Assembly (NCBI GenBank): GCA_043814605.1
Contig: JBDRJV010000037.1
Span: 31,899-95,898, forward strand
DNA length: 64,000 bases
Direction of reading: 5' to 3'
DNA from: Candidatus Omnitrophota bacterium
GTDB lineage: Bacteria > Omnitrophota > Gorgyraeia > B26-G9
Shown piece after piece: positions 54 through 61,658 of this stretch. The notes beneath the pieces were generated by a model. The model had not been told where the DNA came from, searched no databases, and worked only from the letters and a program-made list of their open reading frames with translations. Within the stretch, counting starts at the first letter, position 1. Every line of letters starts with the position of its first letter. A program made the translations under genes and the position numbers.

Positions 54-833
54 ATGAAAAAAATAGATAATCGTAATTTATTTAAAAGATCACTTGATTG
101 GTTATTTAAAGAAGAAGATAATTCTTCTCAAAACTCGAGTGAAGAAGAAATCATTGAAATAAATATTTGGCAAATAGTAATAATTTTTATTCTGGTAGCC
201 GGGTTATTCTTGTTAAATATTTATCCTAAAATTGCAAAAAAATTTTTTCAAAGGCACAAAAATAGTAATTTTTCTTATGAATATATTGAAGAAAATATTG
301 AAAAAAATTATTTTGCTGGTAATCAAACAATTAAAAATGGTGATTTTAGCCAAGGGCTTATACACTGGAGCACATCTGATGGGGGAAAAGTTTTTAGAAA
401 TTCAAAGAGTAAAATGACTTTAGAAAAAAATGATTTTCATTCACCTCCCTACGCAATGAAAATCGAATCAATCGTACCGGCAAATCGATATTACTATACT
501 AAAACTGAGAATAGTGCGGTTATCAATAGTGCTTTTGATTTTTACGAAACTGAGCATTGGTTGGGTATTCTCCCTCAAGTTAATGCTAAATTGAGTTTGT
601 GGTATAAGGGGGATGTGCCGCGTGTATCATTGCACTGTCTGGATAAAAGGGGCAAATGGATAGGCTTAGGATCTGTTTCCGGGCCAGCTACAGATGAGTG
701 GACATATTTAGAAATTATGAAAAAAATACCGGAAAATGGCCGGGCGATAACATTTGATATTGTTTTAAATCAGGCTCAAGGCATGCCTCTTCCTGTAATT
801 ATCGTAGATGATGTTTTTTTATCAGTCGAGTAA
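54..833 (+). CDS. Membrane-anchored protein with a C-terminal CBM4_9/galactose-binding-like (jelly-roll) domain
   Basis: 259 aa ORF with the RBS-like aaaggagaa just upstream. It has one N-terminal TM helix (IWQIVIIFILVAGLFLLNIY). The C-terminal region opens with NGDFSQGLIHW, resembling the NG-x-FE-x-G-x3-W signature of CBM4_9-type domains. Motif-level call only. Confidence 0.4.
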   Translation: MKKIDNRNLFKRSLDWLFKEEDNSSQNSSEEEIIEINIWQIVIIFILVAGLFLLNIYPKIAKKFFQRHKNSNFSYEYIEENIEKNYFAGNQTIKNGDFSQGLIHWSTSDGGKVFRNSKSKMTLEKNDFHSPPYAMKIESIVPANRYYYTKTENSAVINSAFDFYETEHWLGILPQVNAKLSLWYKGDVPRVSLHCLDKRGKWIGLGSVSGPATDEWTYLEIMKKIPENGRAITFDIVLNQAQGMPLPVIIVDDVFLSVE

Positions 834-836
834 AAT

Positions 837-2510
837 ATGAGAGAAACTATAAATTTAAAACAAAACATAGATTCAAATAAAACATTTATAACTTTGCTTG
901 CTGTATTATTAGCATTCCACTTTTTTAGTAATGCTTATTTATTAACCAAAAATCCCTTACCAGAAGGTAAGGACAGTTATGCGCACATTATGGGTTATTT
1001 GAATTTTTCTGATATTTTACAACAACGAACCAAGAGTTTATTTTACCAACCAGAGAAAAGTTTATTTTATAACATATTTTTTTCTGTTTTTGACTATCCG
1101 GTATTTTTTTATTTAACTGTTTTTTTTATAAATATGATTTTCGGTAATTTTATATTTTATTGTATAATTTTTACTTCAACAGTATTTTTTTTACTGCTGT
1201 TAATCGCAGTTTATAAAATCGGATGTTTTCTCAACCCGCAAACAGGTATTTTAGCTGCGGTAATTTGTTCTTCTTTCCCGATTGTTTTTATTACAGCGCG
1301 ACATTTTAATTTAGAAATAGCTCTGAGTGCTTTAGTTTGTGTAAGTATCTGGATGCTATTAAGAACAAATTTTTTTACAGAACGCTTATTTTCTATTTTA
1401 CTGGGTATTATTTTAGGTTTAGGGATGTTAACGAAACAGTCTTTCCTGATATATGTTTTAGGACCGATCGCCATAATTTTATACAAATGTTTAGTAGTTC
1501 GCGATCGCGATATATTTTTTACAAGCATTAGGAATATTATTTTTTGCTTTGCAATTGCACTGCTTTTAAGCTTTTATTTTTATAGCCAAGGCGATATTTA
1601 TATGAATATTAACACAAGAATAAACTTTACTGGTGCAGTTAACGGCAATAATATTTTTCAAACACAACATTTGATGTATTATGTAAAATCATTAACATTA
1701 AGTTTAGGCTGGGGATTTACTTTGCTGTTAATATTTTCTTTATTTAGTATCAGGAAAATTACTCAACCGCTGCGGTTTTTACTAATTGCCTGGTTTATAT
1801 TTCCGTTATTAGTTTTTACTTTTATAAAAATTAAATATACTGAATATTCTATTGCCTATCTACCGGCAGCAGCGATAATTTCCGGATCAGCAATCAGTTT
1901 AATTAGAAATATTAAATTAAAAAAAATTTTAATAATTAGTATTTTAGTTATGGCTACAGTGAATTTTTTTATGTTATCTTATTTTAATTTTAAATCATTT
2001 TTTACCACATATTATTACCAAAATCTCAAAGGGGAACTTATTGAGAGTGATCAGATCACTGGGATAAGTCAGATCGAAAGGAAAACAGAATTTAAGGATT
2101 TGTTAAAAAAATTAGGCAATTCTGGCAAAGCAATAGGAATTTTTTATGATGATATAAACCTGCAATTCCCGGCTTATTTCACCAGGTTTATTAGTGTAGA
2201 AACAAAAAAACAAGTTCAAATATTGGATATGCTATTTCGCATCCCTTTATTTTTCAACAAGTTAGATCGGATTGACAGTTTAATTTTTGTTTCCTGCTCA
2301 GGGCAGGATTGGATCAGCGAGAAATCTTTTTTTAAGTTTGAGCAGGATTTAAATAAACAAACTTTTTACAGATACAAATTTAGACCGTATTTTTTGGAGA
2401 GAATCCTGGCGGCTAAAAAAAATTTTATATTAACGCACAAACTAGGTTTTGAAACCACAGGGAATAAATTGCAAAAGGAAAATATTTTTATTTATAAAAG
2501 GATGCCTTAA
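837..2510 (+). CDS. Polytopic GT-C-type glycosyltransferase (ArnT/PMT_2-like)
   Basis: 557 aa with many hydrophobic helices over the first ~380 aa, then a soluble C-terminal domain. The first loop contains an acidic residue (PLPEGKDSYAH). The architecture is typical of polyprenol-phosphate-sugar-dependent GT-C enzymes. It starts 4 bp after the previous gene. Confidence 0.5.
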   Translation: MRETINLKQNIDSNKTFITLLAVLLAFHFFSNAYLLTKNPLPEGKDSYAHIMGYLNFSDILQQRTKSLFYQPEKSLFYNIFFSVFDYPVFFYLTVFFINMIFGNFIFYCIIFTSTVFFLLLLIAVYKIGCFLNPQTGILAAVICSSFPIVFITARHFNLEIALSALVCVSIWMLLRTNFFTERLFSILLGIILGLGMLTKQSFLIYVLGPIAIILYKCLVVRDRDIFFTSIRNIIFCFAIALLLSFYFYSQGDIYMNINTRINFTGAVNGNNIFQTQHLMYYVKSLTLSLGWGFTLLLIFSLFSIRKITQPLRFLLIAWFIFPLLVFTFIKIKYTEYSIAYLPAAAIISGSAISLIRNIKLKKILIISILVMATVNFFMLSYFNFKSFFTTYYYQNLKGELIESDQITGISQIERKTEFKDLLKKLGNSGKAIGIFYDDINLQFPAYFTRFISVETKKQVQILDMLFRIPLFFNKLDRIDSLIFVSCSGQDWISEKSFFKFEQDLNKQTFYRYKFRPYFLERILAAKKNFILTHKLGFETTGNKLQKENIFIYKRMP

Positions 2511-3572
2511 ATGCTGCAAAGTATATATTTTCAATTAAATAATTTTATGGCTTTTTACAATCTTTTTTCAGTACGGCAAGCAGCCAGTTTTTTACAAAAT
2601 TTGCCGTTATCAATTAATTTATTGAGAACGGCAAAGTGTAATTTAAATTGCCGGATTTGCTCAGCTAAAGACATGCTTAATATAGGGAATGAATTAACCA
2701 CGGGTGAAATCATCAGCTTTATTGAAAAAAATGCAGAGTATAAACCGATTTTTTTTATCGGAGGAGGAGAACCTTTTATCCGTAAGGATATCCTGGAATT
2801 TGCCAGAGTGTTCAGCCGGAATAAATTAAAATACGGGATTGTTACTAATGGGACTTTGCTTAATCCCGAAATTATGGGTGAATTGTTCAATAATAAATTA
2901 AATGTGCTGATTTTTTCTTTACATGGCAATCAGCTGCAGCATGATAAGGTGACCGGTAAAAGTGGGGCATATAGTTTAATTAGTAATAATATAAAATTTG
3001 CTGCGAAAAATAAGAAAAGTACTAAAATAATTTTAAATTTTGTAATAAATGAGGAGAATTATTTACAGCTTGAGCAAATTATTAAATTTGGAAAAAATCA
3101 AGGAGTAAATCAAGTAAGAATTGAGCATTTAATTTTTTTAACAAAAAATGAATACAAGCAGCATTTAGAAGTTTGCCGGAAACTTTTTCCAAAGAACAAT
3201 ACAAATCTTGTAATTTTTAAAAAGGATATTAATAATTTGGAAATTGGTGATTTTTTAAAAAAAGAGATACCTCGCTTAAAAAAGAAATACAAAAATTTTG
3301 TTTTATTTAAACCGCATTTGAGTCAAGCTGAAATTGAATCATGGTATTGTGAGAATTTTCAATTAAATCGTAAGTGTTTTTTTGTGCAGCATTCAGTTTT
3401 TGTAAACCCAAACGGAGATATTGTTCCCTGTCAGTTTTTAGGAAATTATAAACTAGGGAATATCAAGGAGGTTGAGTTAGTTGATGCCTGGCGAAATAAA
3501 GCCAGTCAAAATATTAAAAAAACTTTAAAGCAAAAGATTTTACCCGGATGTAACCGATGCTGTAAATTATGA
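2511..3572 (+). CDS. Radical SAM enzyme with C-terminal SPASM/twitch-like Cys-rich domain
   Basis: CxxxCxxC motif in RTAKCNLNCRICSAK and a GGE motif in FIGGGEPFIRKD. C-terminal cysteines occur in NPNGDIVPCQFL and LPGCNRCCKL. Confidence 0.8.
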   Translation: MLQSIYFQLNNFMAFYNLFSVRQAASFLQNLPLSINLLRTAKCNLNCRICSAKDMLNIGNELTTGEIISFIEKNAEYKPIFFIGGGEPFIRKDILEFARVFSRNKLKYGIVTNGTLLNPEIMGELFNNKLNVLIFSLHGNQLQHDKVTGKSGAYSLISNNIKFAAKNKKSTKIILNFVINEENYLQLEQIIKFGKNQGVNQVRIEHLIFLTKNEYKQHLEVCRKLFPKNNTNLVIFKKDINNLEIGDFLKKEIPRLKKKYKNFVLFKPHLSQAEIESWYCENFQLNRKCFFVQHSVFVNPNGDIVPCQFLGNYKLGNIKEVELVDAWRNKASQNIKKTLKQKILPGCNRCCKL

Positions 3573-4117
3573 AAATTTTGTTAAATAAAAGTTATAACTT
3601 ATTAAGGGATATATATTTAGAAAGCATTAATTTTACGGATAAAACTAAGCTTTTAGATATCGGTTGCGGTTTGAGGGGTAATTTTCTAAAGCTGCCTAAA
3701 TTTGTGTATACAGGTGTTGATGCTAATAAACATATTATTGCTAAATTGAGAAAGAAATCAGATGGGCTATATGAGTGTATGGATGCGAATGATTTAAAAT
3801 TTGAAAATAACTTTTTTGATTACATAATATCAACGAGTTTTTTCCATCATTGCTCAAAGAATAATATTCGTGCGATAGTAGAGCAAATAAAAAAGATTTT
3901 AAAAGATTCGGGAAAAATAATTATTGCAGATGGGGTATATCCGGATTCTAAAATTAATATTTTAGGATATTTAATTAGATTTTTTGACCGGGGTAGATTC
4001 GTGAGAAGAAAAGATGAATTCAGAGAGTTATTTGAGAATTTTTTTATTGTTAAAAAAGAAGTTTATTTTGTGAATAAGTTTTTTGCATATTACGTATTAG
4101 TAATGGAAAAAAAATAA
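3569..4117 (+). CDS. Class I SAM-dependent methyltransferase (small, Methyltransf_11-like)
   Basis: Motif I is LLDIGCGLRGN. An acidic post-I residue and FDYIISTSFFHHC are present. ATGA overlap with the upstream gene. It resembles the second small methyltransferase at 53697-54290 (FDYIILNNVLHHM). Confidence 0.7.
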   Translation: MKILLNKSYNLLRDIYLESINFTDKTKLLDIGCGLRGNFLKLPKFVYTGVDANKHIIAKLRKKSDGLYECMDANDLKFENNFFDYIISTSFFHHCSKNNIRAIVEQIKKILKDSGKIIIADGVYPDSKINILGYLIRFFDRGRFVRRKDEFRELFENFFIVKKEVYFVNKFFAYYVLVMEKK

Positions 4118-4118
4118 G

Positions 4119-5555
4119 ATGATAAATCAGTTAAAACAAAAAAAAAATAATTCAGAACTTTTAGTGTTTACAGTAATTTTAGCCTGTGGATTTTTTATGC
4201 GGCTTTTTTCTTTAATAAATTCAGATAATTTCCATGGTATTGCGGCAGGTAAAATTTTTGAAGCTCGTTATTTGCTCAAACATCCAGAGGAGCTTTGGGC
4301 TTGGATTGTCCCGGCCCATGGGCCGGTGCATTTATACTTGATCGCAATTTTATTTAAAATATTTGGTGATTATATAATTATTGCAAGATTAATAAGTTTA
4401 TTTTCCGGAGTGGCCTTATTTTTTCCCTATTATAAACTGATCAAACTTTCCTTCAGCAGAGATATTGCGCTTTTTAGTTGTTTTATCGCAGCTTTTTTTT
4501 ACTTACATGTAATTTATAGTGTGATTTCGACTGCGGAATCAATTTTTATTTTATTTTTATTTTCGGGGTTGTATTTTTATTTTAAATATTTCCAAAGTCA
4601 AAGAGTTTTTGAGTTGATAATTTCTGCGCTTTGTGTAGGAGTTTCAAGTATGTGTCGATTTGAAGGAGGGTTATACATAGTTTTATTAAGTGCTTTTTTA
4701 ATAAAAAAACCAAAAATAATGTTGATTTTTTTAATAAGTTCCTGTATGTTGCCTTGGGTTTGGATAGTTTTTAATTTTATTTTGTACGGCGATTTTTTCT
4801 ATTTTTTAACATCAAGCGATAATATCGTAAAGTATGAATTTGATAACCTAAAAGTTTACGGAACTCAATATACAATAACCGAGAGAATTTTATATTGGCC
4901 AATGGTATTAAAAGGGTATTTTGGAAATATATTATTTATTTTCGGTATAATCGGGCTTTGGTCTAATTTTCGCAACGCTAAAACTAAACTGCTGTTAGTT
5001 CTATTCCTGAGTATTTTAGGTTTTTTTATTTTTAAAACTTTTTATAAAGAACTGGCAATGCAGCCGCGTTATGGATTAAGTCTCGGATGCTTATTCATCC
5101 CGTTTATTGCAGATGCCTTATTAACTGGCTATACAAGAGTAAAAAAAATTTCCAAAAATTTAATACTGGCTCGGGATCAATTTAAAATGCTATTTTTTTT
5201 AATTCTTTTTTATATAGTAATAAGAGGATCATATTTAAGTTTAGTGCAATTACCGCATACTCCTCTCTGGGTAGAGAAAACAGCTAAATTTCTTGCTGCT
5301 AATGTAGACGAAAATAAAAATGAATTAGTGTATATTGATTCTGATGATGATAATTTTATAGAGCCGATTAAAATTTTATCGGGACTGGATGTGGACAGTT
5401 TTGTGGATATGCAGGCAGAAGGAACACATAAAGAATTGATTGAATCAGCTTCTTTAAAAAATATTAAATATCGTATTTTAATTTCAAAAACCAGGAATCT
5501 TAATTTAAAACAAATTTTTCAAGCTTCTGATTGTAAAATTTATAAAATAAAGTAA
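4119..5555 (+). CDS. Polytopic GT-C-type glycosyltransferase (paralogue set with 5561 and 8297)
   Basis: 478 aa and multi-TM, with a soluble C-terminal domain. First-loop motif is SDNFHGIAAGK. It shares CRFEGG and QPRYGLSLG blocks with the next gene. Confidence 0.5.
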   Translation: MINQLKQKKNNSELLVFTVILACGFFMRLFSLINSDNFHGIAAGKIFEARYLLKHPEELWAWIVPAHGPVHLYLIAILFKIFGDYIIIARLISLFSGVALFFPYYKLIKLSFSRDIALFSCFIAAFFYLHVIYSVISTAESIFILFLFSGLYFYFKYFQSQRVFELIISALCVGVSSMCRFEGGLYIVLLSAFLIKKPKIMLIFLISSCMLPWVWIVFNFILYGDFFYFLTSSDNIVKYEFDNLKVYGTQYTITERILYWPMVLKGYFGNILFIFGIIGLWSNFRNAKTKLLLVLFLSILGFFIFKTFYKELAMQPRYGLSLGCLFIPFIADALLTGYTRVKKISKNLILARDQFKMLFFLILFYIVIRGSYLSLVQLPHTPLWVEKTAKFLAANVDENKNELVYIDSDDDNFIEPIKILSGLDVDSFVDMQAEGTHKELIESASLKNIKYRILISKTRNLNLKQIFQASDCKIYKIK

Positions 5556-5560
5556 ATTAT

Positions 5561-7057
5561 ATGTCAAATAAAATCACTAAAAGCAGCATCATTTTAATCC
5601 TGATAATAACCGCGATCTTTATAGGTTTAAGATTATTTTTATTACTGGACACGGATACTTTTCATGGTATTGCCGCAGGAAGAACTTTGCTTGCAGAATT
5701 AATATTAAGGAACGGTTTTTATTCAAAGTTATGCTTTGTTCCCGTACATCCGCCAATACATACAGTTATGCTAGTTGCGGGATTGTTTATCTGGAATAAT
5801 CCGATAATTTTACCTGGGTTAGTAAGTTTATTTTTCGGGACGCTTACTTGCCTTCCTTTTTATTACTATAACAAAAGTGTTTTTGATGAAAAAGTGGCTG
5901 TATTTTCGCTAGCAGCAATTAGTTTGTATTCTGATCATATTGCTTATAGTATTATTGGGACTTCAGAAACAATTTTTCATTTTTTTCTTTTCAGTAGTTT
6001 AGTTTTTGCTTTATTTTTTAAAAAAAACAAGAATATGCGGTATTTTTATCTGAGTGCAATAATGATTTCAATAGCTAGTTTATGCCGGTATGAAGGAATA
6101 ATATTTATCCCTTTTTTTTCTGTTTTTTTAACTAAGAAAATAAAAAATATTATTCTCTTTCTAATTGTTTCTTTAATTTTACCGGGTATATGGATGTGCG
6201 TAAATTTTTATTTTACCGGAAATTTTATATATTTTTTAAATACTAATGATATTACCGTACCTTTACAATTTAATTGGATGCGGTTGCAGGGGCTAGATAT
6301 AAACGTTACTTATAAAATTCTATTTTGGCCGCGAGTTTTAATCAATACAATAGGAGTATTTTTTCTTTTTTTTGGACTTGGGGGAGTTATCTTTTGTTTA
6401 AAGAGAGGAGAAAAATTATTTCCGGCAGGATTAGTCATATTTATATTATGTTTATTTGTATTAAGAACTTATCAAGAAAAACTCTATTTGCAGACTCGCT
6501 ACGGCATAACCATTGGTTTATTATTAATTCCTTTTGCAATTTACTTTTTTCAGGTTACTGTTAAAAAGATTAATCGTAACTTGCCGGACTGGTTAGTTTT
6601 ATTTTTACTTTTGACCCTGATTCCTGCCTGGGGAAAGACACTTTCCCAGGAAAGCTTATTTCTCCCGGATACAGTTAAAAATATAAGCAGTTTTTTAGGT
6701 AAAGAAGTTAAAGAAAATGAAAATATTTTTATAACTTCAGAACAAAATGAAAATTATCGTGAAGTGATAAAATTAAGAAGCCGTCTTAATCCTAAACAAT
6801 TTATACTAATTCCGTATCTTGAGCCGTATGAAAACAAATTTATTATAAAACTGGAAACATTTTTTCAATATTTAGAAAAAGAGAATATTAAGTTTTTTGT
6901 CTATTCTCCAGAGGGAGAGTTAGGAAATATTCTGAAATTTGAGGGAAAAGGGGAAAAGTTTAATATGAATGGGTTCTGGTTCAAGCTTATTTATAAAAAT
7001 AGATTATATCATATTTATAAGGTAGACCCTTTAAAAGAGGGGGTAGAAGATGTTTAA
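5561..7057 (+). CDS. Polytopic GT-C-type glycosyltransferase (tandem paralogue of 4119-5555)
   Basis: 498 aa. It carries TDTFHGIAAGR, CRYEGI and QTRYGITIG blocks collinear with the upstream gene. Multi-TM with a soluble C-terminus. Confidence 0.5.
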   Translation: MSNKITKSSIILILIITAIFIGLRLFLLLDTDTFHGIAAGRTLLAELILRNGFYSKLCFVPVHPPIHTVMLVAGLFIWNNPIILPGLVSLFFGTLTCLPFYYYNKSVFDEKVAVFSLAAISLYSDHIAYSIIGTSETIFHFFLFSSLVFALFFKKNKNMRYFYLSAIMISIASLCRYEGIIFIPFFSVFLTKKIKNIILFLIVSLILPGIWMCVNFYFTGNFIYFLNTNDITVPLQFNWMRLQGLDINVTYKILFWPRVLINTIGVFFLFFGLGGVIFCLKRGEKLFPAGLVIFILCLFVLRTYQEKLYLQTRYGITIGLLLIPFAIYFFQVTVKKINRNLPDWLVLFLLLTLIPAWGKTLSQESLFLPDTVKNISSFLGKEVKENENIFITSEQNENYREVIKLRSRLNPKQFILIPYLEPYENKFIIKLETFFQYLEKENIKFFVYSPEGELGNILKFEGKGEKFNMNGFWFKLIYKNRLYHIYKVDPLKEGVEDV

Positions 7058-8282
7058 ATTGTGCCGAGGCCGAATAATATTTTCAATGGATATATTCGGA
7101 GATTTAATTAAAAGTTTTTTTAGTAAAAAAAATAATGGAGAGTTAACTATTAAAAAATTTGAAGATGATTTTGCTCAATATATTGGCAGTAAACATGCAG
7201 TTGCGGTTGCTTCGGGTAAGATGGCATTGTATTTAACGTTGAAGGCATTAGGCGCAAAGGAGGGGGATCAGATTATTATTCCTGCCTATACAGTTAGCGA
7301 AGTTATTGATGTAATTATTCTTTGTAAATTAATACCGGTTTTTGTGGATATTAATCTTAAAGACGCGAATATTGATGTATCCTTGATTGAAAAAAGAATT
7401 ACTCCGAATACTAAATTTATCTTAATGGTACATATGTTTGGATGCCCCTGTGACATTGATGAAATAATTGCAATAAGCAAAAAATATAATCTTAAAGTTA
7501 TTGAAGATGGAGCTCAGAGCTGTGGGGCTGAATATAAAGGAAAAAAAATAGGAAGTTTTGGTGATATTGGGTATTTTAGCTTTGGCATCATGAAAAATTT
7601 AAATACATTAGGCGGGGGAATGATTGTAGCGCAAAATTCTGATCGAATAAATTTTATTAGAAAACAGATAAATAAGTTTTCTGAAAATTTGATGGGGCAA
7701 CTTTTTAAAAAAACGGTTTTAGTTTTTTTTGTATCTATACTAACTACGCCGGTTATATTCTCATTTGTAGTATATCCGTTACTATTTATTATCGAAGAGA
7801 ACAGAAGAGAAAAAATATTTAAGAGTTTATTTAAAGCTAGACCTGTAACAGCACAGTGTATGGAAAAGCTAAAAGTAAAATTTTCTCCTTATCAAGCGGC
7901 GATTGGCATAGCCGGCCTTAAAAAAATTGAACAGATAAATCAAAAGCGGATAAATAATGCTAAAGTTCTAAATCAGGCTCTTAATAATATCGATGGTGTT
8001 TCTTTGATTAAAGAATCAAGTGATTCAAAAAACATTTATTTAAACTATGTGATCCGCATTAATAACAGACAAAAACTAATTAATCGTATGTTTAATAAAG
8101 GAATTGATGTAAGTGCGGGGTTTATTGAATGCTGTCCGGATTTAGCCAGATTTGAGCTTTACCAGTGCGATTGTCCTAGAAGCAGGATTTGGGAAAAAGA
8201 AAATCTATATTTACCGGTTTATCATCCGCTGAAAAGAGAAGTAATGATAAAAATTTCGAAATTAATAAAGGAAGCATTGTGA
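7050..8282 (+). CDS. DegT/DnrJ/EryC1/StrS-family PLP-dependent sugar aminotransferase with an internal hydrophobic insertion
   Basis: AVASGKMALYLTLKALGAKEGDQIIIPAYT, VIEDGAQSCGAEYKGKKIGSFGDIGYFSFGIMKNL (candidate PLP lysine) and GGGMIV match the family. An alternative start is at 7086 (MDIFGDL). Confidence 0.8.
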   Translation: MFKLCRGRIIFSMDIFGDLIKSFFSKKNNGELTIKKFEDDFAQYIGSKHAVAVASGKMALYLTLKALGAKEGDQIIIPAYTVSEVIDVIILCKLIPVFVDINLKDANIDVSLIEKRITPNTKFILMVHMFGCPCDIDEIIAISKKYNLKVIEDGAQSCGAEYKGKKIGSFGDIGYFSFGIMKNLNTLGGGMIVAQNSDRINFIRKQINKFSENLMGQLFKKTVLVFFVSILTTPVIFSFVVYPLLFIIEENRREKIFKSLFKARPVTAQCMEKLKVKFSPYQAAIGIAGLKKIEQINQKRINNAKVLNQALNNIDGVSLIKESSDSKNIYLNYVIRINNRQKLINRMFNKGIDVSAGFIECCPDLARFELYQCDCPRSRIWEKENLYLPVYHPLKREVMIKISKLIKEAL

Positions 8283-8296
8283 AAAATAATCATAGC

Positions 8297-9676
8297 ATGG
8301 AGGGTGGTTTGAATATAATTAAGAATGCCTTACGAGGAGTCGGCGGGTTATTTTTATTAGCTTTTTTTGTGCGGCTTGGTTTTTTAATGAGTTCTGATAA
8401 TTTTTACGGATTTGGGCCGATGTTAAATATTATTACCGCATTAAAGGCTTTTAATTATTTTTCTTTTTTTGAAAATATTTATTTCTGCCCTTTACCCTTT
8501 TATTTATATTCACTGGTTTTTTCAGTATGGATGGGAACGGAACAAATTATTTGCGCACAGTTTTTAAGTTTATTATTCGGCAGTTTAAGCATACCAATTT
8601 TTTATTTATTTGTAAGAAAAAATTTCAATAAACTAATCGCTTTTTATGCCGCATTAATTTTGTGTTTTTATCCGGCCCATATCATAATGAGTATTATTAC
8701 AAGCGCGGATAGTATAGGTTTTTTTCTTTTACTTGTTTGTTTAAATCTAATTTTAAATAAAAATTATTTTTACGCATCAATAATATTAGCAATAAGTTGC
8801 GGATTTACCTATTTAGCATGGGTTTTTGTGCTGATTTTAAATTTATTTATGTTTATCCAATCGGATAAAAAAAATATAAAAAAAATAATAAAATTATTTT
8901 TTTTCAGTATAATTAGTTGTTCTGTTCCTGCAGCTATCATAGTTTTAATCAAGATTAAATATTGCTCGCAAGGGCTTTTTTACAGGAATTTTTATTTAGC
9001 AGACTCATTTATGCGCTACATAATAAATTATGGCAATACGGTTAAAATCGCAATCAGGGCTTTGTTAATGCAGCCGGTTTCGGGATTTTTCCTGGTTAGT
9101 TTAATCGGAGTTTTTTTCTTTTTAAAACAAAAAAGGATAAAGTGTTATGATTTAATTTTTTTATTTGGACTCACATTAATATTGATTTGTTTAGGGATAT
9201 TTAGAGATGAAATTTGCATTTTAGGTCAGGGTGTAAACTTTTTATCAATCATGTGCATACCTTTTTTTGTTTTTGCCGTTACATCCATATTGCAAAAATT
9301 TAAAATAAAAAAGATAATCTTTGTTTTAATTTGCATTTTTTGTTTGATTTTGTTTTTAGTCAGTACTTGTTTAAAACCGAAATTACCGGAAAAAGTAAAA
9401 GAATTGAGTGCCTGGCTAAAAGAAAATATTGATGAGAAAACCAAAATTTATATAAACAAGGATGAAACAGGGTATTATAGTTCAATTATCATGCTTAGCG
9501 GTCTGCCGCAGGGTAATTTTAAATATTATAATAGCTTTGATGATTTTTCTGGCCAGGTTGATGCTGAGGATAATTATCTTATTCTTAGTCTGGAGCAATA
9601 TAGTCAAGCTAAAAATGTTCCGGGTGAGAATTTAATAGTTTTAGAAGGTTATTCTGTATATAAATTAGATAACTAG
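8297..9676 (+). CDS. Polytopic GT-C-type glycosyltransferase (third member of the 4119/5561 family)
   Basis: The track ORF begins at 8189 inside the previous gene. Plausible real starts are GTG 8279 (GTGA overlap) or ATG 8297. SDNFYGFGPM and FLSLLFGSLSIPIFY blocks are collinear with 4119/5561. Multi-TM with a soluble C-terminus. Confidence 0.45.
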   Translation: MEGGLNIIKNALRGVGGLFLLAFFVRLGFLMSSDNFYGFGPMLNIITALKAFNYFSFFENIYFCPLPFYLYSLVFSVWMGTEQIICAQFLSLLFGSLSIPIFYLFVRKNFNKLIAFYAALILCFYPAHIIMSIITSADSIGFFLLLVCLNLILNKNYFYASIILAISCGFTYLAWVFVLILNLFMFIQSDKKNIKKIIKLFFFSIISCSVPAAIIVLIKIKYCSQGLFYRNFYLADSFMRYIINYGNTVKIAIRALLMQPVSGFFLVSLIGVFFFLKQKRIKCYDLIFLFGLTLILICLGIFRDEICILGQGVNFLSIMCIPFFVFAVTSILQKFKIKKIIFVLICIFCLILFLVSTCLKPKLPEKVKELSAWLKENIDEKTKIYINKDETGYYSSIIMLSGLPQGNFKYYNSFDDFSGQVDAEDNYLILSLEQYSQAKNVPGENLIVLEGYSVYKLDN

Positions 9677-9689
9677 ATTGTTAATAAAA

Positions 9690-10781
9690 ATGAAAATAAT
9701 TTTTATCACGCGAGAATCTAAAGAAATGCCAGCAGTGCGAGTCCGCAGCTATGGGTTTGCAAAATTTTTAGAAAAAGCAGGGTATGAAACTATAATTTTC
9801 TCTTATGCTGATAATTTAATGGCTGGAAGCGGAAAAAAAGAGGATAAGTTAAGTATTTTTGACAAAATTAAATATAATTTTAAAACTCTAAAATATCTTT
9901 CTTCTCAGAAAGCAATTTTAGTTTTACAAAGATGTAATTACCATTCTTTTGCGCCCTTACTGCTGGCATTATTGAACCGGAATAAGTTAATTTTCGACCT
10001 GGATGATTGGGAAGCGCGTGAAGATATTCATTATTATTTTAATAAAATCCCTAATTCAAAAGCAATAATTCTCTTATCGCTAATTGCGAGAAAGAGTAAA
10101 TTATGTATCGGCGCAAGCGATTTTTTATGTGAGTTTCTTTTGAATTATAATAAAAATATTTTAAAAATACCAACAGGTGTGGATGTGGAAAATTTTAAGC
10201 CGGATAAAAAGGATAATAATTTACAGCATATAGTATTGTCTTGGATTGGGACTATTTACCGCAAGGATAATCTGGAAAATTTAAAATTTCTTATAGATTG
10301 TTTTCAGGAGCTGTTTGCAGAATTTAATAATATCAGGCTTGAAATCGCCGGAGAGGGTATTTATGCAGATAAATTAATCGCGCTAATTAAAAATATTAAT
10401 AATCAAGATATCATTTTTAAAAACTGGATTAGTCCTGCGAAAATGCCGGATTATCTAAAGAATGTTGATATTGGCGTTATGCCTTTAACCCAAAATTCAA
10501 AATTTAATAAAGCGAAAAGCCCCACCCGCTTGTTTGAATATATGGCGATGGAAAAGGCAGTGGTGGCTAGTACTGTGGGAGAAGCACAAAAGATTATTAA
10601 AAACGGGGAAAATGGATTTTTAGCATCGACAAAAAGTGAGTTTGTTGCGTGCCTAAAAAAATTAATAGAAAATGAGCAGTTAAGGTTAACAATTGGCAGG
10701 TTCGCACGTAAAACAGTAATTGCAGATTATAATTTAAATAAAATTCCGGAAAAATTATTAGAATATATAGGGAAGATATAA
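9690..10781 (+). CDS. GT-B fold glycosyltransferase (GT4/GT1-like)
   Basis: The C-terminal block PTRLFEYMAMEKAVVASTVGEAQKIIKNGENGFL matches the E-x7-E nucleotide-sugar-binding region. ATG at 9690 is preferred over the TTG at 9678. Confidence 0.75.
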   Translation: MKIIFITRESKEMPAVRVRSYGFAKFLEKAGYETIIFSYADNLMAGSGKKEDKLSIFDKIKYNFKTLKYLSSQKAILVLQRCNYHSFAPLLLALLNRNKLIFDLDDWEAREDIHYYFNKIPNSKAIILLSLIARKSKLCIGASDFLCEFLLNYNKNILKIPTGVDVENFKPDKKDNNLQHIVLSWIGTIYRKDNLENLKFLIDCFQELFAEFNNIRLEIAGEGIYADKLIALIKNINNQDIIFKNWISPAKMPDYLKNVDIGVMPLTQNSKFNKAKSPTRLFEYMAMEKAVVASTVGEAQKIIKNGENGFLASTKSEFVACLKKLIENEQLRLTIGRFARKTVIADYNLNKIPEKLLEYIGKI

Positions 10782-12253: not shown

Positions 12254-13143
12254 TTGAAATCAGCATTGTTATTGTAACTTATTCTGCAGAGAAATTCATA
12301 AAAAATTGTTTAGATTCTGTTTTTGCGCAGGATTTAAATAATTTTGAAGTTATTATTATTGATAATAACTCTGGCGATAATACTATTAATATCTTAAAGA
12401 AATATTTGTCAAAAATAATTTTAATAGAAAATAAAAAAAATGAGGGTTTTTGTTTCGCAACTAATCAAGGCATATTACTTGCAAAAGGAAAATATATATT
12501 TACTTTAAATAGCGATGTTTACTTAAGTAAGGACTACGTTTTAAATTTAAAAAATTTTTTAGAAAGAAATTTAGAAGCAGGCATGGCAGGGGGTAAATTG
12601 TTAAGAATGGATAAAATAACTATCGATACTATCGGCCTAAAATTGGGGGTTTTTTATCGGTTCTTAAATATCGCAGAATCGGAGAAAGATACGGGTAAAT
12701 ATAAAGTTCCTTTAGAAATTATGGGTCCTTGTGCAGCCGCGGCCTTATATAAGCGGGAGCTTTTAGAGAGTATTAGATATAAGGATGAATTTTTTGATAA
12801 TCAGTTTTTTTTCTTGGCTGATGATTTTGATATTGCCTGGCGGGCACAGCGAATAGGTTGTAAGGGGTTTTATGTTCCAAATGCAGTTTGCTGGCATTAC
12901 CGGGATAGTTCAGGGCATAAATCCCAGTTCAAACAATACCTTTCATTCAGAAACAGGTATTATTTATTGATTAAAAATGCGGGTTTTAAAACTGTTTTTT
13001 TGTTTGCATTAGGTTTTTTATTTTATGATTTTCCCAGGCTGGTTTTTCTTTTAATAACTAATACTAAGTATACAGCGAAAGCAATAGCGGAAATTTTTAT
13101 GAATATGCCTGAAATTTTATCAAAGCGTGTAAAAAAAATATGA
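12250..13143 (+). CDS. GT2 glycosyltransferase (rhamnosyltransferase-like)
   Basis: ISIVIVTYSAEKFIKNCLDSV..VIIIDNNSGDNT, TLNSDV and DDFDIAWRAQRIGCKGFYVPNAVCWH match the family. Paralogue of 49120-50097. Confidence 0.8.
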   Translation: MIEISIVIVTYSAEKFIKNCLDSVFAQDLNNFEVIIIDNNSGDNTINILKKYLSKIILIENKKNEGFCFATNQGILLAKGKYIFTLNSDVYLSKDYVLNLKNFLERNLEAGMAGGKLLRMDKITIDTIGLKLGVFYRFLNIAESEKDTGKYKVPLEIMGPCAAAALYKRELLESIRYKDEFFDNQFFFLADDFDIAWRAQRIGCKGFYVPNAVCWHYRDSSGHKSQFKQYLSFRNRYYLLIKNAGFKTVFLFALGFLFYDFPRLVFLLITNTKYTAKAIAEIFMNMPEILSKRVKKI

Positions 13144-14252
13144 AAAAATTTACAAGAAGAGAATTTTTGCAAAAAGGAATAGGTTTAAGTACTGCAGTGG
13201 TCAGCGGACAGTTATTCAATGAAAATGTTTTTGCGCGTAATATTAATTTAACTAAACCAAGTCTTGTTTCAATAGCTAAAGGAAAGCATATTTCAAAAAT
13301 TACACAGGAAGCAATTCAAGAAATCGGAGGTATGGATAAAATAGTAAAACCGGGGCAAACTGTATTCATAAAACCTAATTATATTGCGGGAGGATTTATG
13401 GGGCATGATCCGGTGACTTCCGGAGAAATCCCGCATCCGGAAGTAGTGGCGGCAGTGGCCTGTGAATGTTTAGAAGCCGGGGCAAAAAATGTATTGATTG
13501 GAGAATGGTTTGAACGCCCGTTAGAAATAATGTGGCAGGGAAAAGAAGGTAAAGAAGGAGCTCAATTAAAGAAAAAAATTGATTTAATTAATAAAAAATA
13601 CGGAAATAAAGTATATTTAATTGATCTAAGAAAATATACAGAATCATTTTTTTATGTGCCTTCTTTGACAAAGATTAAATGGCTGGCGATTCCGAATTTA
13701 GTTAAAGAAGCAGATGTTATTATTTCAATTGCTGTTTTAAAAACACATCATTACCCAATTTCCGTAACTTTTGGCATGAAGAATTTTGTCGGTATTATGC
13801 CTTCCATTCTTTATGGTGAGCCCAGAATGAAATTACATCAGGCAGGGATTAATCAGATAATCGTAGATATCATACGGGGAATAACGCCAAGTTTAACAGT
13901 GATTAGCGGTGTTTTTGGCATGGAAGGAGAAGGAGTTGTTAAATCTTTTGGTGGAATTTCGGTTGATATCAGTCAAAGGATTGGCGGATACATTGTGATC
14001 GCAGGAGTTGATCCTGTAGCTACAGATGCTATAGCAACCCGGATTATAACTGAAAATTGGCATCCACAACCTAAAAATACTGATTTAGGAGTTCCTTGGT
14101 ATATTAAACATTTGAGACTGGCGTATCAACAGGGATTAGGCAATATAAAAAAATCAAATATTATAATTAAAGGTGCAGCTTTGAACGAGGTAAAAATGCC
14201 CTGGAAAATGCCGCAAGCCAATACATATCCGGAGTTACCTAATTATGTTTAG
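13140..14252 (+). CDS. DUF362-like protein with twin-arginine (Tat) signal peptide
   Basis: The N-terminus MKKFTRREFLQKGIGLSTAVVSGQLFNENVFA has an RR-x-FL motif, a hydrophobic region and a VFA cleavage-like site. VFIKPNYI and VLKTHH blocks are typical of DUF362. Confidence 0.6.
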   Translation: MKKFTRREFLQKGIGLSTAVVSGQLFNENVFARNINLTKPSLVSIAKGKHISKITQEAIQEIGGMDKIVKPGQTVFIKPNYIAGGFMGHDPVTSGEIPHPEVVAAVACECLEAGAKNVLIGEWFERPLEIMWQGKEGKEGAQLKKKIDLINKKYGNKVYLIDLRKYTESFFYVPSLTKIKWLAIPNLVKEADVIISIAVLKTHHYPISVTFGMKNFVGIMPSILYGEPRMKLHQAGINQIIVDIIRGITPSLTVISGVFGMEGEGVVKSFGGISVDISQRIGGYIVIAGVDPVATDAIATRIITENWHPQPKNTDLGVPWYIKHLRLAYQQGLGNIKKSNIIIKGAALNEVKMPWKMPQANTYPELPNYV

Positions 14253-14826
14253 AAAAATAATTCAGATTTTAACAATAAGCATAATTTTTATTAGTTTCAA
14301 TAGGTATCTTTATGCAGAAAATTTATTTTATCCATTTGATGCCCGAGATATTACCGGGAAATGGCAGGAATCAGTAATCGAACAAGATGAGGTAATTAAG
14401 ACGGCATCCTTAAAAACAAAAGGAAAAATACAGTTAAATATCCCGGAAGATGGATTTTACCAATTATGCATTGAATTATATCACAATTGGCACAAATTCT
14501 GTCCTTTTATCTATTTTAATACGAGAGACAGCCAAGGAAAAACTTTTTCGGATTTTTTATTTTCAGAAAAACGATGGTATTTACCAGAAAATAGCGGCCG
14601 CTGGGAAATGAGGGCGCTGAGTGCAAATCCTTTTTGGTTTTTACATAAAGGTGAACTTAATATTGAATTCTGGCTCGAATCAAAACAATCTTGCTGGGAC
14701 AAACAGGATAAAGAAATAGAAGGAGAGTTTTATATTAAAAGATTTATTTTAGTAAAAGTTGATATGCTCGAAAAAAGCGATAAAAACTTTCAAACTAAAA
14801 ATTTAGAAAAAACAGAAGATTTTTAA
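14245..14826 (+). CDS. Secreted hypothetical protein
   Basis: 193 aa with an N-terminal signal-like helix (ILTISIIFISFNRYLYAEN). No recognisable motif. It overlaps the upstream gene by 8 nt. Confidence 0.4.
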   Translation: MFRKIIQILTISIIFISFNRYLYAENLFYPFDARDITGKWQESVIEQDEVIKTASLKTKGKIQLNIPEDGFYQLCIELYHNWHKFCPFIYFNTRDSQGKTFSDFLFSEKRWYLPENSGRWEMRALSANPFWFLHKGELNIEFWLESKQSCWDKQDKEIEGEFYIKRFILVKVDMLEKSDKNFQTKNLEKTEDF

Positions 14827-18131: not shown

Positions 18132-18968
18132 GTGAGGCTAATTAAAGTTTTCAATCTTTGCGTTGTTTTTTTTGCGGTTTTTAGCTTTTTGTCAAAATAC
18201 TGTTTAGAAGCTGCAGATAATCAATGTTTTAAAATAGTTCCTTTTAAAGTAGGTCAATGGGTCGAGTATCAGATCGTTAGTTTAGAGGAGCAAAGTAAAG
18301 ATAATAGATATAAAATTTCAGTTTTAAATGAAGAAATCATTGATGGAGAAATTTATTTTTGGATTGGTTTTGATGTTTTTAACCAAGGAAAAAGAGAAAT
18401 ATCATTTAAGGCCTTAATGAAAAATTTTAAAACAGATGACTTAAAGCTTAAAAAAGAGCAATTTATAGCAGAAGGGATAATAAGTTTTTTCAAAGCTTCG
18501 GATAAACTTTATATAAAAGCAGGTGGTAGCGAGTGGGTAGAGGTTAATCCTAAAACGTACTTTTTAAATTTGAAACTATTAGAAAATTCGTTCTATGAAC
18601 AGGTTCCGGATGAACTAGGGAAAGTTGATTATTCTAAACTTGTGATGATTGGGAGGGAAGAGATTAATGTTTCTTCTCAGGAATTTAACTGTTTGCATTA
18701 CCAAGTAAAAACTAATCCTTCGGATGAATTTTCTGATGAAGGGATAGATTTGTGGCGCTCAGATAAAGTGCCTTTTTTAGGAATTGTAAAATTAGAATTT
18801 TCAAAAACTGATTACGATCTTAAGTTGCGCTATCAAGAAAGCAAAATCCTTGCTTCAAAAAGTATTTTTTATAAAATTTTTTATTACTTATTTAACAAAT
18901 TACCTAAAGATACGCATACTCGTAAAGATATTTATAAAATAAATTTGATTGATTATAAAAATTATTAA
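18132..18968 (+). CDS. Secreted hypothetical protein (paralogue-like to 60954-61658)
   Basis: GTG start and a signal-like N-terminus (LCVVFFAVFSFLSKYCLEAA). Blocks VPFKVGQWVEYQ, QEFNCLHYQV and DLW..FLGIVKL are collinear with FPLAIGNEWHYEQ, GDFFNCYKLI and GWYGKGVGKVK in 60954-61658. Confidence 0.4.
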   Translation: MRLIKVFNLCVVFFAVFSFLSKYCLEAADNQCFKIVPFKVGQWVEYQIVSLEEQSKDNRYKISVLNEEIIDGEIYFWIGFDVFNQGKREISFKALMKNFKTDDLKLKKEQFIAEGIISFFKASDKLYIKAGGSEWVEVNPKTYFLNLKLLENSFYEQVPDELGKVDYSKLVMIGREEINVSSQEFNCLHYQVKTNPSDEFSDEGIDLWRSDKVPFLGIVKLEFSKTDYDLKLRYQESKILASKSIFYKIFYYLFNKLPKDTHTRKDIYKINLIDYKNY

Positions 18969-41591: not shown

Positions 41592-41972
41592 TAAAAAAAT
41601 AATATCGTATAAAGCGATACTTATTAATTTTACCGCTAAAATTTTTCTACTATTGGTTAGAGGACTAATTATATTACTGTTGTTTCCAAAGAGAAAGATA
41701 GTATTGTAGATATTACTGGTTTATAAAATGATTCGAAAAAAATAACTAATCGATTAAGCTTAATAAAATGTAATTTTAATTATTTTAAAGGACTAACTAT
41801 TAGTTGATTGATAAGGTTGTTACGAATACCGAGACTAATATAATAAGCGATTTAAATTAATCGCCATGTCCTGTAGAAGGTATAATTAGTTTACGTAATT
41901 ATAATAATGTTGTGGTGAATTTTCAAGAAAATATTTTTCAATTAATATATACAATTCGGCGAGAGGATCTAG

Positions 41973-43166
41973 ATGTCTATTTCGAGAAGAAATTTTTTAA
42001 AAAATAGTTTAAAATTTTGTGCAGGAGTTGGATTATGCATCTTAACAAAAAGTTTCTGGGATAATTTTGAAAATACAGAAAGGATAGACAATTTTTTATT
42101 AAAAGAAGCAAAATATTATCGTAAAGGAAGTAACAATACTGTGCAATGCTTATTATGTGCCAGAAATTGTGTAATTAAGGATAAAAAAAGAGGGTTTTGC
42201 CAAGCCAGGATAAATAGTAAAGGTAAATTATTTAGTATGGTATACGGAAGTGTGATTATAACCCATTCAAAGGATAGACCGTTTAGGTCTTTGATTTATT
42301 TTGCTAATGATATTGAAGGGCTATGTATTGGTACAGCTGGATGTAATATGAGATGCAAGTTTTGTCTTGCCTCAGGAATTAGTCAGGTAAAACCTGAAGA
42401 TATTAAGATTAATAATAGATTTCCTTTTACTATGAATAAGAAACAAAATAAGACTCAGATTCTTCCAGATCAATTGATAAGCATGGCCAAAAAAAACAAT
42501 GTAAAATTAATTCATTTTAATCTTAATGAACCTACAATATATTATGAGTATATGCTAGATGTGGCAAAAATAGCGGTAAAAAATGGAATTTTTACAATGC
42601 TATGGAGCAATGCATATATAAATAGGGACCCTTTGCTTGAGTTAGCTCCTTATTTAGGCGGAGCGAGCATTGGATTGAAAGCTTTTAACAATGATATCTA
42701 TAAAAAGTTTTGCAGCGGAGAATTAAGTCCGGTTTTAGATACTTTAAAGTTGCTGAAAAAACAAAAAATTCCTTTTGAGATAATTTATCCAGTCATTCCG
42801 ACTGTTAATGATGATACTCAACAAATTAAAGATATGTGTTTTTGGATTAAAGATAAATTGGGTACGGAAGTGCCATTGCATTTTTATCGTTTCCTGCCTA
42901 GGTATAAATTAGTTAATTATCCTCCAACCCCTATCTCAACCTTGGAATCCATACAGAGTTTGGCTAAAAATACTGGTCTAAAATATGTATATGTTTTCTA
43001 TATGGGAGATTATCCTATCCCGGGCATGGAAGAAAAAATTTATTGTCCAAATTGTAAGAAATTAGTTTTATTACGTAAAAATTTAAATAATCTTGTAATA
43101 AATAATACGAAAAATTCCTGTTGTAAATTTTGCGGTGAAAAATTACTTTTTTTTATTTTTAAATAA
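41973..43166 (+). CDS. PflA/AmmeMemoRadiSam-like radical SAM enzyme with N-terminal twin-arginine signal and C-terminal zinc ribbon
   Basis: The N-terminus MSISRRNFLKNSLKFCAGVGLCIL carries the canonical S-R-R-x-F-L-K. AKYYRKGSNNTVQCLLCARNCVIKDKKRGFCQARINSKGKLF is the family-typical CxxCxxxC..G-x-C-x-x-R block. The radical SAM motif is GTAGCNMRCKFCLA. The C-terminus has CPNCKK..CCKFCGEKL. Confidence 0.7.
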   Translation: MSISRRNFLKNSLKFCAGVGLCILTKSFWDNFENTERIDNFLLKEAKYYRKGSNNTVQCLLCARNCVIKDKKRGFCQARINSKGKLFSMVYGSVIITHSKDRPFRSLIYFANDIEGLCIGTAGCNMRCKFCLASGISQVKPEDIKINNRFPFTMNKKQNKTQILPDQLISMAKKNNVKLIHFNLNEPTIYYEYMLDVAKIAVKNGIFTMLWSNAYINRDPLLELAPYLGGASIGLKAFNNDIYKKFCSGELSPVLDTLKLLKKQKIPFEIIYPVIPTVNDDTQQIKDMCFWIKDKLGTEVPLHFYRFLPRYKLVNYPPTPISTLESIQSLAKNTGLKYVYVFYMGDYPIPGMEEKIYCPNCKKLVLLRKNLNNLVINNTKNSCCKFCGEKLLFFIFK

Positions 43167-60953: not shown

Positions 60954-61658
60954 ATGTTTCTTATGCGATATTTCATAAAAAAAATTCTGACATTAATTTT
61001 AGTTTTTTTATTTTTAGGAGTGTTTGATAAAAGTTTTGCTGAAGATTTATCAGAATATTTTCCTCTAGCTATAGGCAATGAATGGCATTATGAGCAAAAT
61101 TCAACTGATGATTTGTTTATTGTAAAAGCAGAAAAAGCTGCTTCTAATCATTTCTTTAATAATCAAGATATAATAAAGCTTGTTAATAGCGAATTAAGCT
61201 CAATTTATTTACAAAAAACGATAAATGGGATTATATTCTTAGGAAACTCTTCTGTAAAAAGTGATTTTAATTTTTATAATAAGAAACCGTTAATGTTTCT
61301 ACCTTTTAACAAAAAATATTATAAATATGGAATTATGGAAGAAGAAACAGAAATTTATATGCCGGAAAATAATTCTGACAATGTAGCTGAAATTAAGTTG
61401 AATGTCAAAGTGTGTGGAAAGGAAAACGTGTTCGTAAAAGCAGGAGATTTTTTTAATTGCTATAAATTAATTTCTACTATTACCATCTATAACAAAATTA
61501 ATAATTTTATTTATATTTTTACTGAATATGGCTGGTATGGAAAAGGGGTGGGAAAGGTAAAATATGTTTTAAAATTATCTTTTTTAAACCAGGGGCAAAT
61601 TGATACTCAAACCCAACTTTTTGAACTTAAGGAATGTTTTATTACCAGTAATCATTAA
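60954..61658 (+). CDS. Secreted hypothetical protein inserted between murF and mraY
   Basis: Signal peptide-like N-terminus (ILTLILVFLFLGVFDKSFAED). Collinear blocks are shared with 18132-18968. No known dcw function. Confidence 0.45.
   Translation: MFLMRYFIKKILTLILVFLFLGVFDKSFAEDLSEYFPLAIGNEWHYEQNSTDDLFIVKAEKAASNHFFNNQDIIKLVNSELSSIYLQKTINGIIFLGNSSVKSDFNFYNKKPLMFLPFNKKYYKYGIMEEETEIYMPENNSDNVAEIKLNVKVCGKENVFVKAGDFFNCYKLISTITIYNKINNFIYIFTEYGWYGKGVGKVKYVLKLSFLNQGQIDTQTQLFELKECFITSNH

Follow-up and report, generated by a model that had tools for sequence, protein, structure and literature searches.

Radical S-adenosylmethionine (SAM) enzymes constitute one of the largest enzyme superfamilies and are treated as strictly cytoplasmic, on the grounds of their SAM, their Fe-S cluster assembly and their low-potential electron donor. 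Can a member of this superfamily be made for export? The question is raised by a gene at positions 41,973 to 43,166 of a 64,000-nucleotide stretch of contig JBDRJV010000037.1 of Candidatus Omnitrophota bacterium (the whole stretch is called the window here). An earlier note, made from these letters only, had described its product as a radical SAM enzyme with an N-terminal signal for twin-arginine translocation (Tat) and had left three outcomes: activity outside the cytoplasm, an uncleaved anchor, or an escort for a partner. The data favour a real extracytoplasmic location. We consider it fairly probable, from comparison of sequences, that the protein is a Tat-targeted radical SAM enzyme which is delivered to the outer face of the membrane and acts there on an envelope glycan or lipid intermediate.

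A twin-arginine signal at the N-terminus

The gene and the elements on which the predicted signal depends are the following.

41973..43166, plus strand: coding sequence of 397 amino acids for a divergent AmmeMemoRadiSam-type radical SAM enzyme, assigned by its open reading frame (ORF), PF04055 and TIGR04337.
41961..41967, plus strand: Shine-Dalgarno-like element GAGAGGA, 5 nt upstream of the ATG, read from the sequence.
41982..42002, plus strand: twin-arginine (RR) motif S4-R5-R6-N7-F8-L9-K10, an exact match to the consensus S/T-R-R-x-F-L-K.
42015..42047, plus strand: hydrophobic (h-) region F15-T25 (FCAGVGLCILT), flanked by K14 and K26, with a mean Kyte-Doolittle hydropathy of 2.22.

The target protein has the N-terminus MSISRRNFLKNSLKFCAGVGLCILTKSFW and opens with MSISRRNFLK; the protein P0001 from an NCBI metagenome-assembled genome (MAG) of Candidatus Omnitrophota is identical in sequence. 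An in-frame TAG (41970-41972) lies directly before the ATG, and downstream no ATG, GTG or TTG occurs in frame until codon 57 (GTG at 42141), where initiation would delete the conserved LKEAKYY at the start of the core. Every possible choice of start thus keeps the RR motif, and a downstream start that removes it, which the earlier note had named as a refutation, is not available. Calculated with the amino-acid frequencies of the window itself, the N-termini of the 51 large ORFs should contain [ST]RRxFLK 1.7e-4 times. Both the exact consensus and this expectation bear out the motif as a real one, and a chance RR motif was rejected. Two copies of the pattern were observed among 20,430 residues, each at an extreme N-terminus and followed by a hydrophobic stretch. 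The second protein opens with MKKFTRREFLQKGIGLSTAVVSG.

13140..14252, plus strand: second Tat-type protein, of the DUF362 family, MKKFTRREFLQKGIGLSTAVVSGQLF; found by the motif scan, with PF04015 at 92.7 bits.

The presence of this second Tat-type protein suggests that the organism uses Tat.

The h-region of the target (2.22) falls inside the range of mean hydropathy of Tat-type relatives (1.3-2.4) and under that of Sec-like relatives (2.5-4.0), which is the split of known Tat and general secretory (Sec) signals. As a stable membrane-spanning anchor it is poor, since the best 19-residue hydropathy window of the N-terminus scores 1.01. In the AlphaFold2 (AF2) model residues 5-38 form one helix outside the globular core, and a Trp just after the h-region, conserved in P0001-P0003, would fit an interfacial position. 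A lipoprotein signal was rejected, as C16 and C22 are found without a lipobox (read from the sequence).

The N-terminus resembles that of known Tat-exported Fe-S proteins (Rieske proteins, hydrogenase small subunits, DmsA-type proteins), which share S/T-RRxFLK, loading of the cluster in the cytoplasm and a weakly hydrophobic h-region with the target. The Rieske protein retains its Tat signal as an N-terminal anchor, and a similar retention is possible for the target. As far as we found, no radical SAM enzyme is among the characterised Tat substrates.

Export signals across the family

An N-terminal hydrophobic extension before the core was found in nearly all of the best 120 homologues. In 81 genome loci (80 species representatives and L003), rule-based calls gave 42 RR/KR (twin-arginine or lysine-arginine) Tat-type signals, 24 Sec-like signals and 15 proteins with none, calls that include misassignments: L009, L011 and L028 were called Tat-type and are Sec-like by hydrophobicity, and L037 and L073 carry RR and were called Sec-like. 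An independent metagenome sample contained 21 Tat-type, 51 Sec-like and eight signal-less members. Tat-type loci belong to more than 10 phyla overall and occur in Omnitrophota, Thermodesulfobacteriota, Planctomycetota, Acidobacteriota, Clostridia and Halanaerobiaceae, as well as in Caldithrix, Latescibacterota, Eisenbacteria, Bacteriovoracaceae, Altiarchaeota and Aenigmatarchaeota. In many Tat-type members the signal ends in an AxA cleavage site of the classical kind, for example ASAMA|QE and FAWA|EK. In a few relatives (P0104, P0115 and Bacteroidales loci) the protein begins at once with the core. The signal type is evolutionarily labile, with at least 23 changes by parsimony on a rough neighbour-joining (NJ) tree of 199 sequences. 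The protein, which requires three metal sites, carries a Sec-type signal in about one-third to two-thirds of close relatives.

In three loci tatA and tatC lie beside the radical SAM gene:

L015 8941-12605 (Altiarchaeota), no strand given: tatA-tatC-tatA-radical SAM-Memo/AMMECR1, apparently a single operon; the Memo/AMMECR1 protein has a lipobox.
L007 9977-13929 (Omnitrophota), no strand given: tatA and tatC directly beside a Tat-type radical SAM gene.
L058 7864-12151 (Aenigmatarchaeota), no strand given: tatA and tatC directly beside a Tat-type radical SAM gene.

The typical partner of these enzymes is a Memo-AMMECR1 fusion. Signals of the enzyme and of an adjacent fusion agree in 31 of 32 loci: both carry one in 26, where the partner's is of Sec type and often has a lipobox, and neither does in five, all of them Bacteroidales (over-extended ORFs were corrected for two of these five). 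The discordant locus is L050. The fusion, which joins AmmeMemoRadiSam proteins B and A, is exemplified by L003 11049-12548, with the signal ...LLVFCSILLSAC|YSG, and occurs with a signal in 25 further loci. Altogether, family-wide signals, co-variation with the partner and tat linkage are strong comparative evidence at the level of the family, and they argue that export is a trait of this radical SAM family. As a side observation, the radical SAM gene is accompanied by an adjoining paralogue from the same family in L041 (3457-4515, minus strand) and in seven other loci; the L041 paralogue has its own Tat signal, MHLLMGITRRDFIKGSLLLGSS....

Other neighbours differ with the signal type. A DsbD_TM/CcdA-like gene accompanies 19 of 26 Sec-like, one of 39 Tat-type and none of 15 signal-less genome loci, and 24 of 51 Sec-like and none of 21 Tat-type metagenome loci; because most of the loci with this gene are from Omnitrophota, the counts are not phylogenetically independent. 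Its product has six helices, about 220 amino acids and the motifs GPC-x3-CGP and SPCAP. It is found, for example, in L003 (12549-13223), also in L006, L008-L012, L016-L018, L027, L028, L030 and L048, and in 24 metagenome loci. This suggests a thiol-reducing helper that acts outside the cytoplasm for a Cys-rich enzyme exported unfolded. We know of no case in which Fe-S clusters are assembled outside the cytoplasm.

Signal-bearing systems most often have as neighbour the 'fused MFS/spermidine synthase' (NF037959, PRK03612-like), a polytopic protein of about 720 amino acids with a spermidine-synthase-like domain, which is present in 35 of 65 of their loci vs one of 15 signal-less loci and is absent from the window.

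L007 11119-13365, L015 13952-16108 and L030 11010-13166, strand -: fused MFS/spermidine synthase, found in 33 further loci as well.

A relation of this protein to SAM supply is speculation. A neighbour matching the DUF362 profile occurs in nine of 39 Tat-type relative loci, which come from other phyla, and the one inspected (L066 8812-9810) bears a Tat signal itself. In L003, from Omnitrophota, a type II secretion/type IV pilus cluster (539-9760; PilM, PilO, secretin, T2SSE, T2SSF and pseudopilins) stands just upstream of the canonical Sec-type system, and L004 has the same arrangement.

Family assignment, cysteine motifs and fold

The radical SAM core of the target matches PF04055 at 60.3 bits, and a weak PF13248 match lies at the C-terminus. 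TIGR04337, the NCBIfam model of the AmmeMemoRadiSam system radical SAM enzyme, scores 231.3 bits vs a cutoff of 220, a borderline pass; canonical Tat-type relatives score 336-396 bits and the subclade orthologue L005 scores 245. The match spans residues 46-391, and since the model starts at residue 46, about 45 residues constitute an N-terminal extension. Three cysteine motifs were examined in an alignment of 30 sequences (A1):

42147..42200, plus strand: N-terminal motif C59-x2-C62-x3-C66-x9-C76, probably an auxiliary metal or cluster site; invariant in A1.
42342..42365, plus strand: radical SAM cluster motif GC124-NMR-C128-KF-C131 (C-x3-C-x2-C), inside the PF04055 match; invariant in A1.
43044..43133, plus strand: C-terminal zinc-ribbon-like motif C358-PN-C361...C384-KF-C387, with the weak PF13248 match; its four Cys are invariant in A1.

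All 11 Cys of these motifs are thus invariant columns, as are E186-P187, which align to the S/T-E-P-T stretch of the family. The AF2 model has a pLDDT (predicted local distance difference test) of 88, and its best fold match in the PDB is the pyruvate formate-lyase activase PflA (3cb8, E 6.6e-14, TM score 0.74 normalised to the target). Given the TIGR04337 pass and the PflA-like fold, the identification as a PflA/AmmeMemoRadiSam-type enzyme in the earlier note was correct. No solved structure of the TIGR04337 family was found; sequence matches to known structures were only weak ones, to TYW1 and PflA.

The likeness to PflA has limits. The family hidden Markov models (HMMs) of PflA remain far below their cutoffs (TIGR02493, 41.8 vs 231.75; TIGR02494, 40.6 vs 174.35), and the target adds the N-terminal Cys4 and C-terminal zinc-ribbon modules. 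PflA is cytoplasmic and signal-less, whereas the target carries an export-type N-terminus. Identity as a glycyl-radical activase was rejected, because these cutoffs were missed although the fold is PflA-like; the Pfam survey of the window found no glycyl-radical enzyme gene.

With the TIGR04337 family the target shares the three Cys motifs, the length and the PflA-like core, and both the target and most close relatives have the export-type extension that the model does not cover. Canonical members have a DPIEKKP loop and a CQNW motif, whereas the target lacks both and has an insertion of 15-30 residues. Family systems are associated with Memo/AMMECR1, whereas the target is syntenic with B12-radical SAM, methyltransferase, GT2, PMT_2 and Wzy_C genes. 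As the conserved loop and the association with Memo/AMMECR1 are both missing, we regard the target as a divergent variant and not as a typical TIGR04337 member.

The target belongs to a rare subclade

The subclade of the target is monophyletic on the NJ tree and has nine known members, P0001-P0007, L087 and L088. It is rare: among 5.8 billion protein clusters the best matches included seven relatives, and only L087 and L088 were gained from a metagenome scan. The near-universal family loop HIDPIEKKPLFHFLPG (H-(I)-D-P-I-E-K-K-P-(L/F)-F-H-F) is absent from P0001-P0007 in A1, and the target has HSKDRPFRSLIYFANDIEG at this position. CQNW is absent from the target and P0002-P0007 in the same alignment.

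42399..42461, plus strand: subclade-specific insertion of 15-30 residues in A1, at about residues 143-163, seen there in P0001-P0006 only; residues 147-159 have a pLDDT below 50.

The lost loop lies just upstream of the cluster motif, which we take to be roughly the position of the substrate-contacting loop of PflA. Its loss plausibly reflects a change of substrate.

The N-terminal extension is homologous among the target, P0002 and P0004 in A1. P0004, the syntenic Omnitrophota orthologue (46% identity to the target), keeps TRRDFLKNGLK, and P0006 has no hydrophobic segment. In its export route the subclade seems to alternate between Tat and Sec, a pattern shared with the wider family.

Genomic context of the target gene

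The window is one long same-strand cluster of about 29% GC. Twenty radical SAM genes lie on one strand in about 46 kb (positions 2511-48833): nine B12-binding, six with an HMPTM zinc ribbon, two SPASM, two MoaA/NirJ/PTO1314-related, and the target. The six HMPTM zinc-ribbon paralogues are arranged in tandem-like fashion, and their closest counterparts are TrsS and Tes, the tetraether lipid synthase. Interleaved with the twenty genes are those for three DegT aminotransferases, the glycosyltransferases GT1 and GT2, four PMT_2 proteins (glycosyltransferase fold C, GT-C), Wzy_C, WbqC and a polysaccharide deacetylase. Methyltransferases are encoded as well, and the cluster ends at the cell-division genes mraZ-mraW-ftsI-murE-murF. 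It is an unusually radical-SAM-dense envelope glycan/lipid cluster and is syntenic in the Omnitrophota MAG L001; P0004 is encoded in the same type of cluster directly upstream of mraZ. The locus of P0003 has two B12-radical SAM genes before it and methyltransferase, GT2, PMT_2 and Wzy_C genes after it; P0007 adjoins WbqC.

No Memo, AMMECR1, DsbD_TM or membrane SpeE-like partner was found among the ORFs of at least 70 amino acids in the window, and no Memo, AMMECR1 or DsbD-like gene in the syntenic loci L001 and L085. The earlier statement that no AMMECR1 or Memo gene is adjacent therefore extends to the whole 64 kb. The target is outside the canonical three-component AmmeMemoRadiSam system, and its conserved context together with these absences suggests that it is a paralogue recruited to an envelope glycan/lipid pathway.

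Upstream of the gene lies a gap:

41592..41972, no strand given: non-coding gap of 381 nt, probably the promoter region.

This had been called the only large non-coding gap of the locus, which is not the case: it is the largest, but there are four others of 205-286 nt. Neither is it conserved, as the upstream gap in the syntenic locus L001 is merely 44 nt. A promoter-like TTGTTA-16-TATAAT lies at 41817-41844; such sites are no commoner here than in shuffled sequence. An Rfam scan of the gap gave no match at the gathering score and none at E<=1, so that a riboswitch or small RNA was rejected. The same applies to a precursor peptide or repeats, as the gap contains no convincing small ORF and no notable repeat.

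Three small proteins with Sec signals are also encoded in the window. Two of them (14245-14826 and 18132-18968) have no Pfam or NCBIfam match, and the third (60954-61658) has a DUF3108-like match at 23.8 vs a Pfam cutoff of 27. Possible roles for them are those of secreted cluster components or of substrates.

Where does the enzyme act?

If the target is exported by Tat, it would fold in the cytoplasm and receive its Fe-S clusters, and possibly SAM, there. The SRRNFLK signal would then take it across the cytoplasmic membrane via TatABC, and at the outer face it would modify an envelope glycan or a lipid-linked intermediate that the surrounding cluster produces. As a divergent paralogue of the AmmeMemoRadiSam enzyme, it would work without Memo/AMMECR1. 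That the cluster encodes enzymes of the outer face, the four PMT_2 proteins and Wzy_C, counts in favour of this proposal. For turnover, a radical SAM enzyme requires SAM as well as an electron of low potential, and to our knowledge neither is available outside the cytoplasm. A SAM-regenerating reaction, as in lysine 2,3-aminomutase, might require no external supply, if bound SAM and a reduced cluster travelled with the enzyme. We infer the export of the target, its substrate and its supply of SAM and reductant alike.

Several observations weigh against Tat export followed by activity outside. We know of no periplasmic source of SAM or of low-potential reductant. The uncharged h-region has only 11 residues, and the TATFIND rules require at least 13 uncharged residues after the motif. 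The Tat-signal HMM TIGR01409 scores 13.7 vs a cutoff of 16.7; this model is a weak detector, passing one of ten other family members (L015, 22.4) in a set of nine canonical Tat-type relatives and the subclade orthologue L005. The c-region CILTKSFWDNF contains no A-x-A signal peptidase site, as the earlier note had observed, and T25-K-S27 is a marginal cleavage-site candidate. Within the 64 kb covered no tatA or tatC was found, and the B12-radical SAM neighbours of the target have no signals and are presumably cytoplasmic. In the subclade RR is kept in two of nine members, the target and P0004. P0002 has RY and a more hydrophobic h-region (3.2), P0003 has YR, and P0005, P0007, L087 and L088 have very hydrophobic Sec-like segments. 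Thus, the conserved trait of the subclade is a hydrophobic N-terminus and not Tat as such. Conservation of the motif among orthologues, which the earlier note had proposed to survey, holds for P0004 and about half of the species-level relatives and fails for seven of the nine subclade members.

Some of these points would fit a viperin-like membrane tether, in which the catalytic domain stays in the cytoplasm, RR is a mere positive flank and the enzyme sits beside its membrane glycan or lipid substrates, using cytoplasmic SAM and ferredoxin or flavodoxin. Viperin, an endoplasmic reticulum-anchored eukaryotic enzyme whose structures were among the fold matches, likewise has its radical SAM core after an N-terminal membrane-associating helix. 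This helix is amphipathic and holds viperin on the cytosolic face, whereas the N-terminus of the target is a canonical export signal. The established cytoplasmic location of SAM and low-potential reductants agrees with a tether, as do the retained hydrophobic segment in subclade members that lost RR, the missing AxA site, the single long helix of residues 5-38 and the cytoplasmic radical SAM neighbours. A tether has no need of the exact seven-residue Tat consensus, which is very unlikely to arise by chance, and none of the AxA sites that many relatives possess. By the positive-inside rule, a positive N-flank followed by one hydrophobic segment would place the C-terminal domain outside, and the 19-residue hydropathy is weak for a spanning anchor. 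Across the family, moreover, the cleavable Sec or lipoprotein signals of the partner proteins occur in step with those of the enzyme, and tatA/tatC adjoin the gene in three loci. We therefore regard the tether as possible and rather improbable. An artefact, be it a misassigned start codon or an RR that arose by chance in a normal cytoplasmic enzyme, is largely refuted and has very little probability left. The subthreshold TIGR01409 score and the few relatives that begin at the core would agree with it; against it stand the upstream stop, the lack of any in-frame start before codon 57, whose use would cost the conserved core, the correctly spaced Shine-Dalgarno-like element, the chance expectation of the motif and the homologous extension in P0002 and P0004.

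We judge it unlikely, and less so than an artefact, that the target is exported by Tat with its chemistry completed in the cytoplasm or with none at all, having modified itself or a partner once, serving as an escort (hitch-hiking), or acting outside as an Fe-S electron-transfer or structural subunit. No SAM or reductant would be required outside, and PflA-type enzymes, whose fold the target shares, act on protein substrates. Folded complexes with their cofactors in place are established Tat cargo, and subunits of hydrogenase and of DMSO (dimethyl sulfoxide) reductase are established examples of hitch-hiking (PMC10924467). The obvious partner in canonical systems would be the Memo-AMMECR1 fusion, but this protein brings its own Sec or lipoprotein signal and thus crosses separately and unfolded, and no conserved signal-less passenger candidate was found beside the subclade of the window. 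The invariance of the SAM-cluster Cys and of E186-P187 is also what is expected of an active enzyme. Tat export with activity at the outer face is accordingly the explanation that we prefer for the target, at the strength given at the outset.

For the family as a whole we put forward a wider proposal with less confidence, and consider it possible at best. The system of radical SAM enzyme and Memo-AMMECR1 might be an extracytoplasmic machine in many bacterial and some archaeal lineages. Radical SAM chemistry would take place outside the cytoplasm by an enzyme that arrives either via Tat with its clusters loaded or via Sec, with a CcdA/DsbD-like protein keeping the 11 Cys reduced so that the clusters could form outside, and often with a membrane spermidine-synthase-like protein binding a SAM derivative. 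The target would be a spin-off of this machine for an outer-face envelope glycan or lipid.

Significance

The full-text literature searched yielded no account of a radical SAM enzyme that is exported or depends on Tat. AmmeMemoRadiSam received only incidental mentions there, and no signal peptides on its components were described; a mention in Burroughs et al. 2019 (JBC), who reportedly described Memo-AMMECR1-radical SAM contexts, is possible. The 2026 HXS papers reportedly concern a periplasmic effector whose maturation depends on a radical SAM enzyme, and not the export of such an enzyme.

The conserved, co-varying signals, the tatA/tatC linkage in three loci and the thiol-reductant transporter in most Sec-type loci challenge the assumption that radical SAM enzymes are strictly cytoplasmic; radical SAM chemistry may operate outside the cytoplasm as well. 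Through this comparative pattern a single odd gene becomes a testable claim of such chemistry. The signals also provide a first localisation clue for the AMMECR1/Memo/radical SAM system, for which we know of no assigned function from bacteria to humans, and those on the Memo-AMMECR1 fusions imply an extracytoplasmic location for relatives of human Memo and AMMECR1. For the Omnitrophota organism itself, the target points to an unusual late modification step at the outer face in envelope glycan or lipid biosynthesis.

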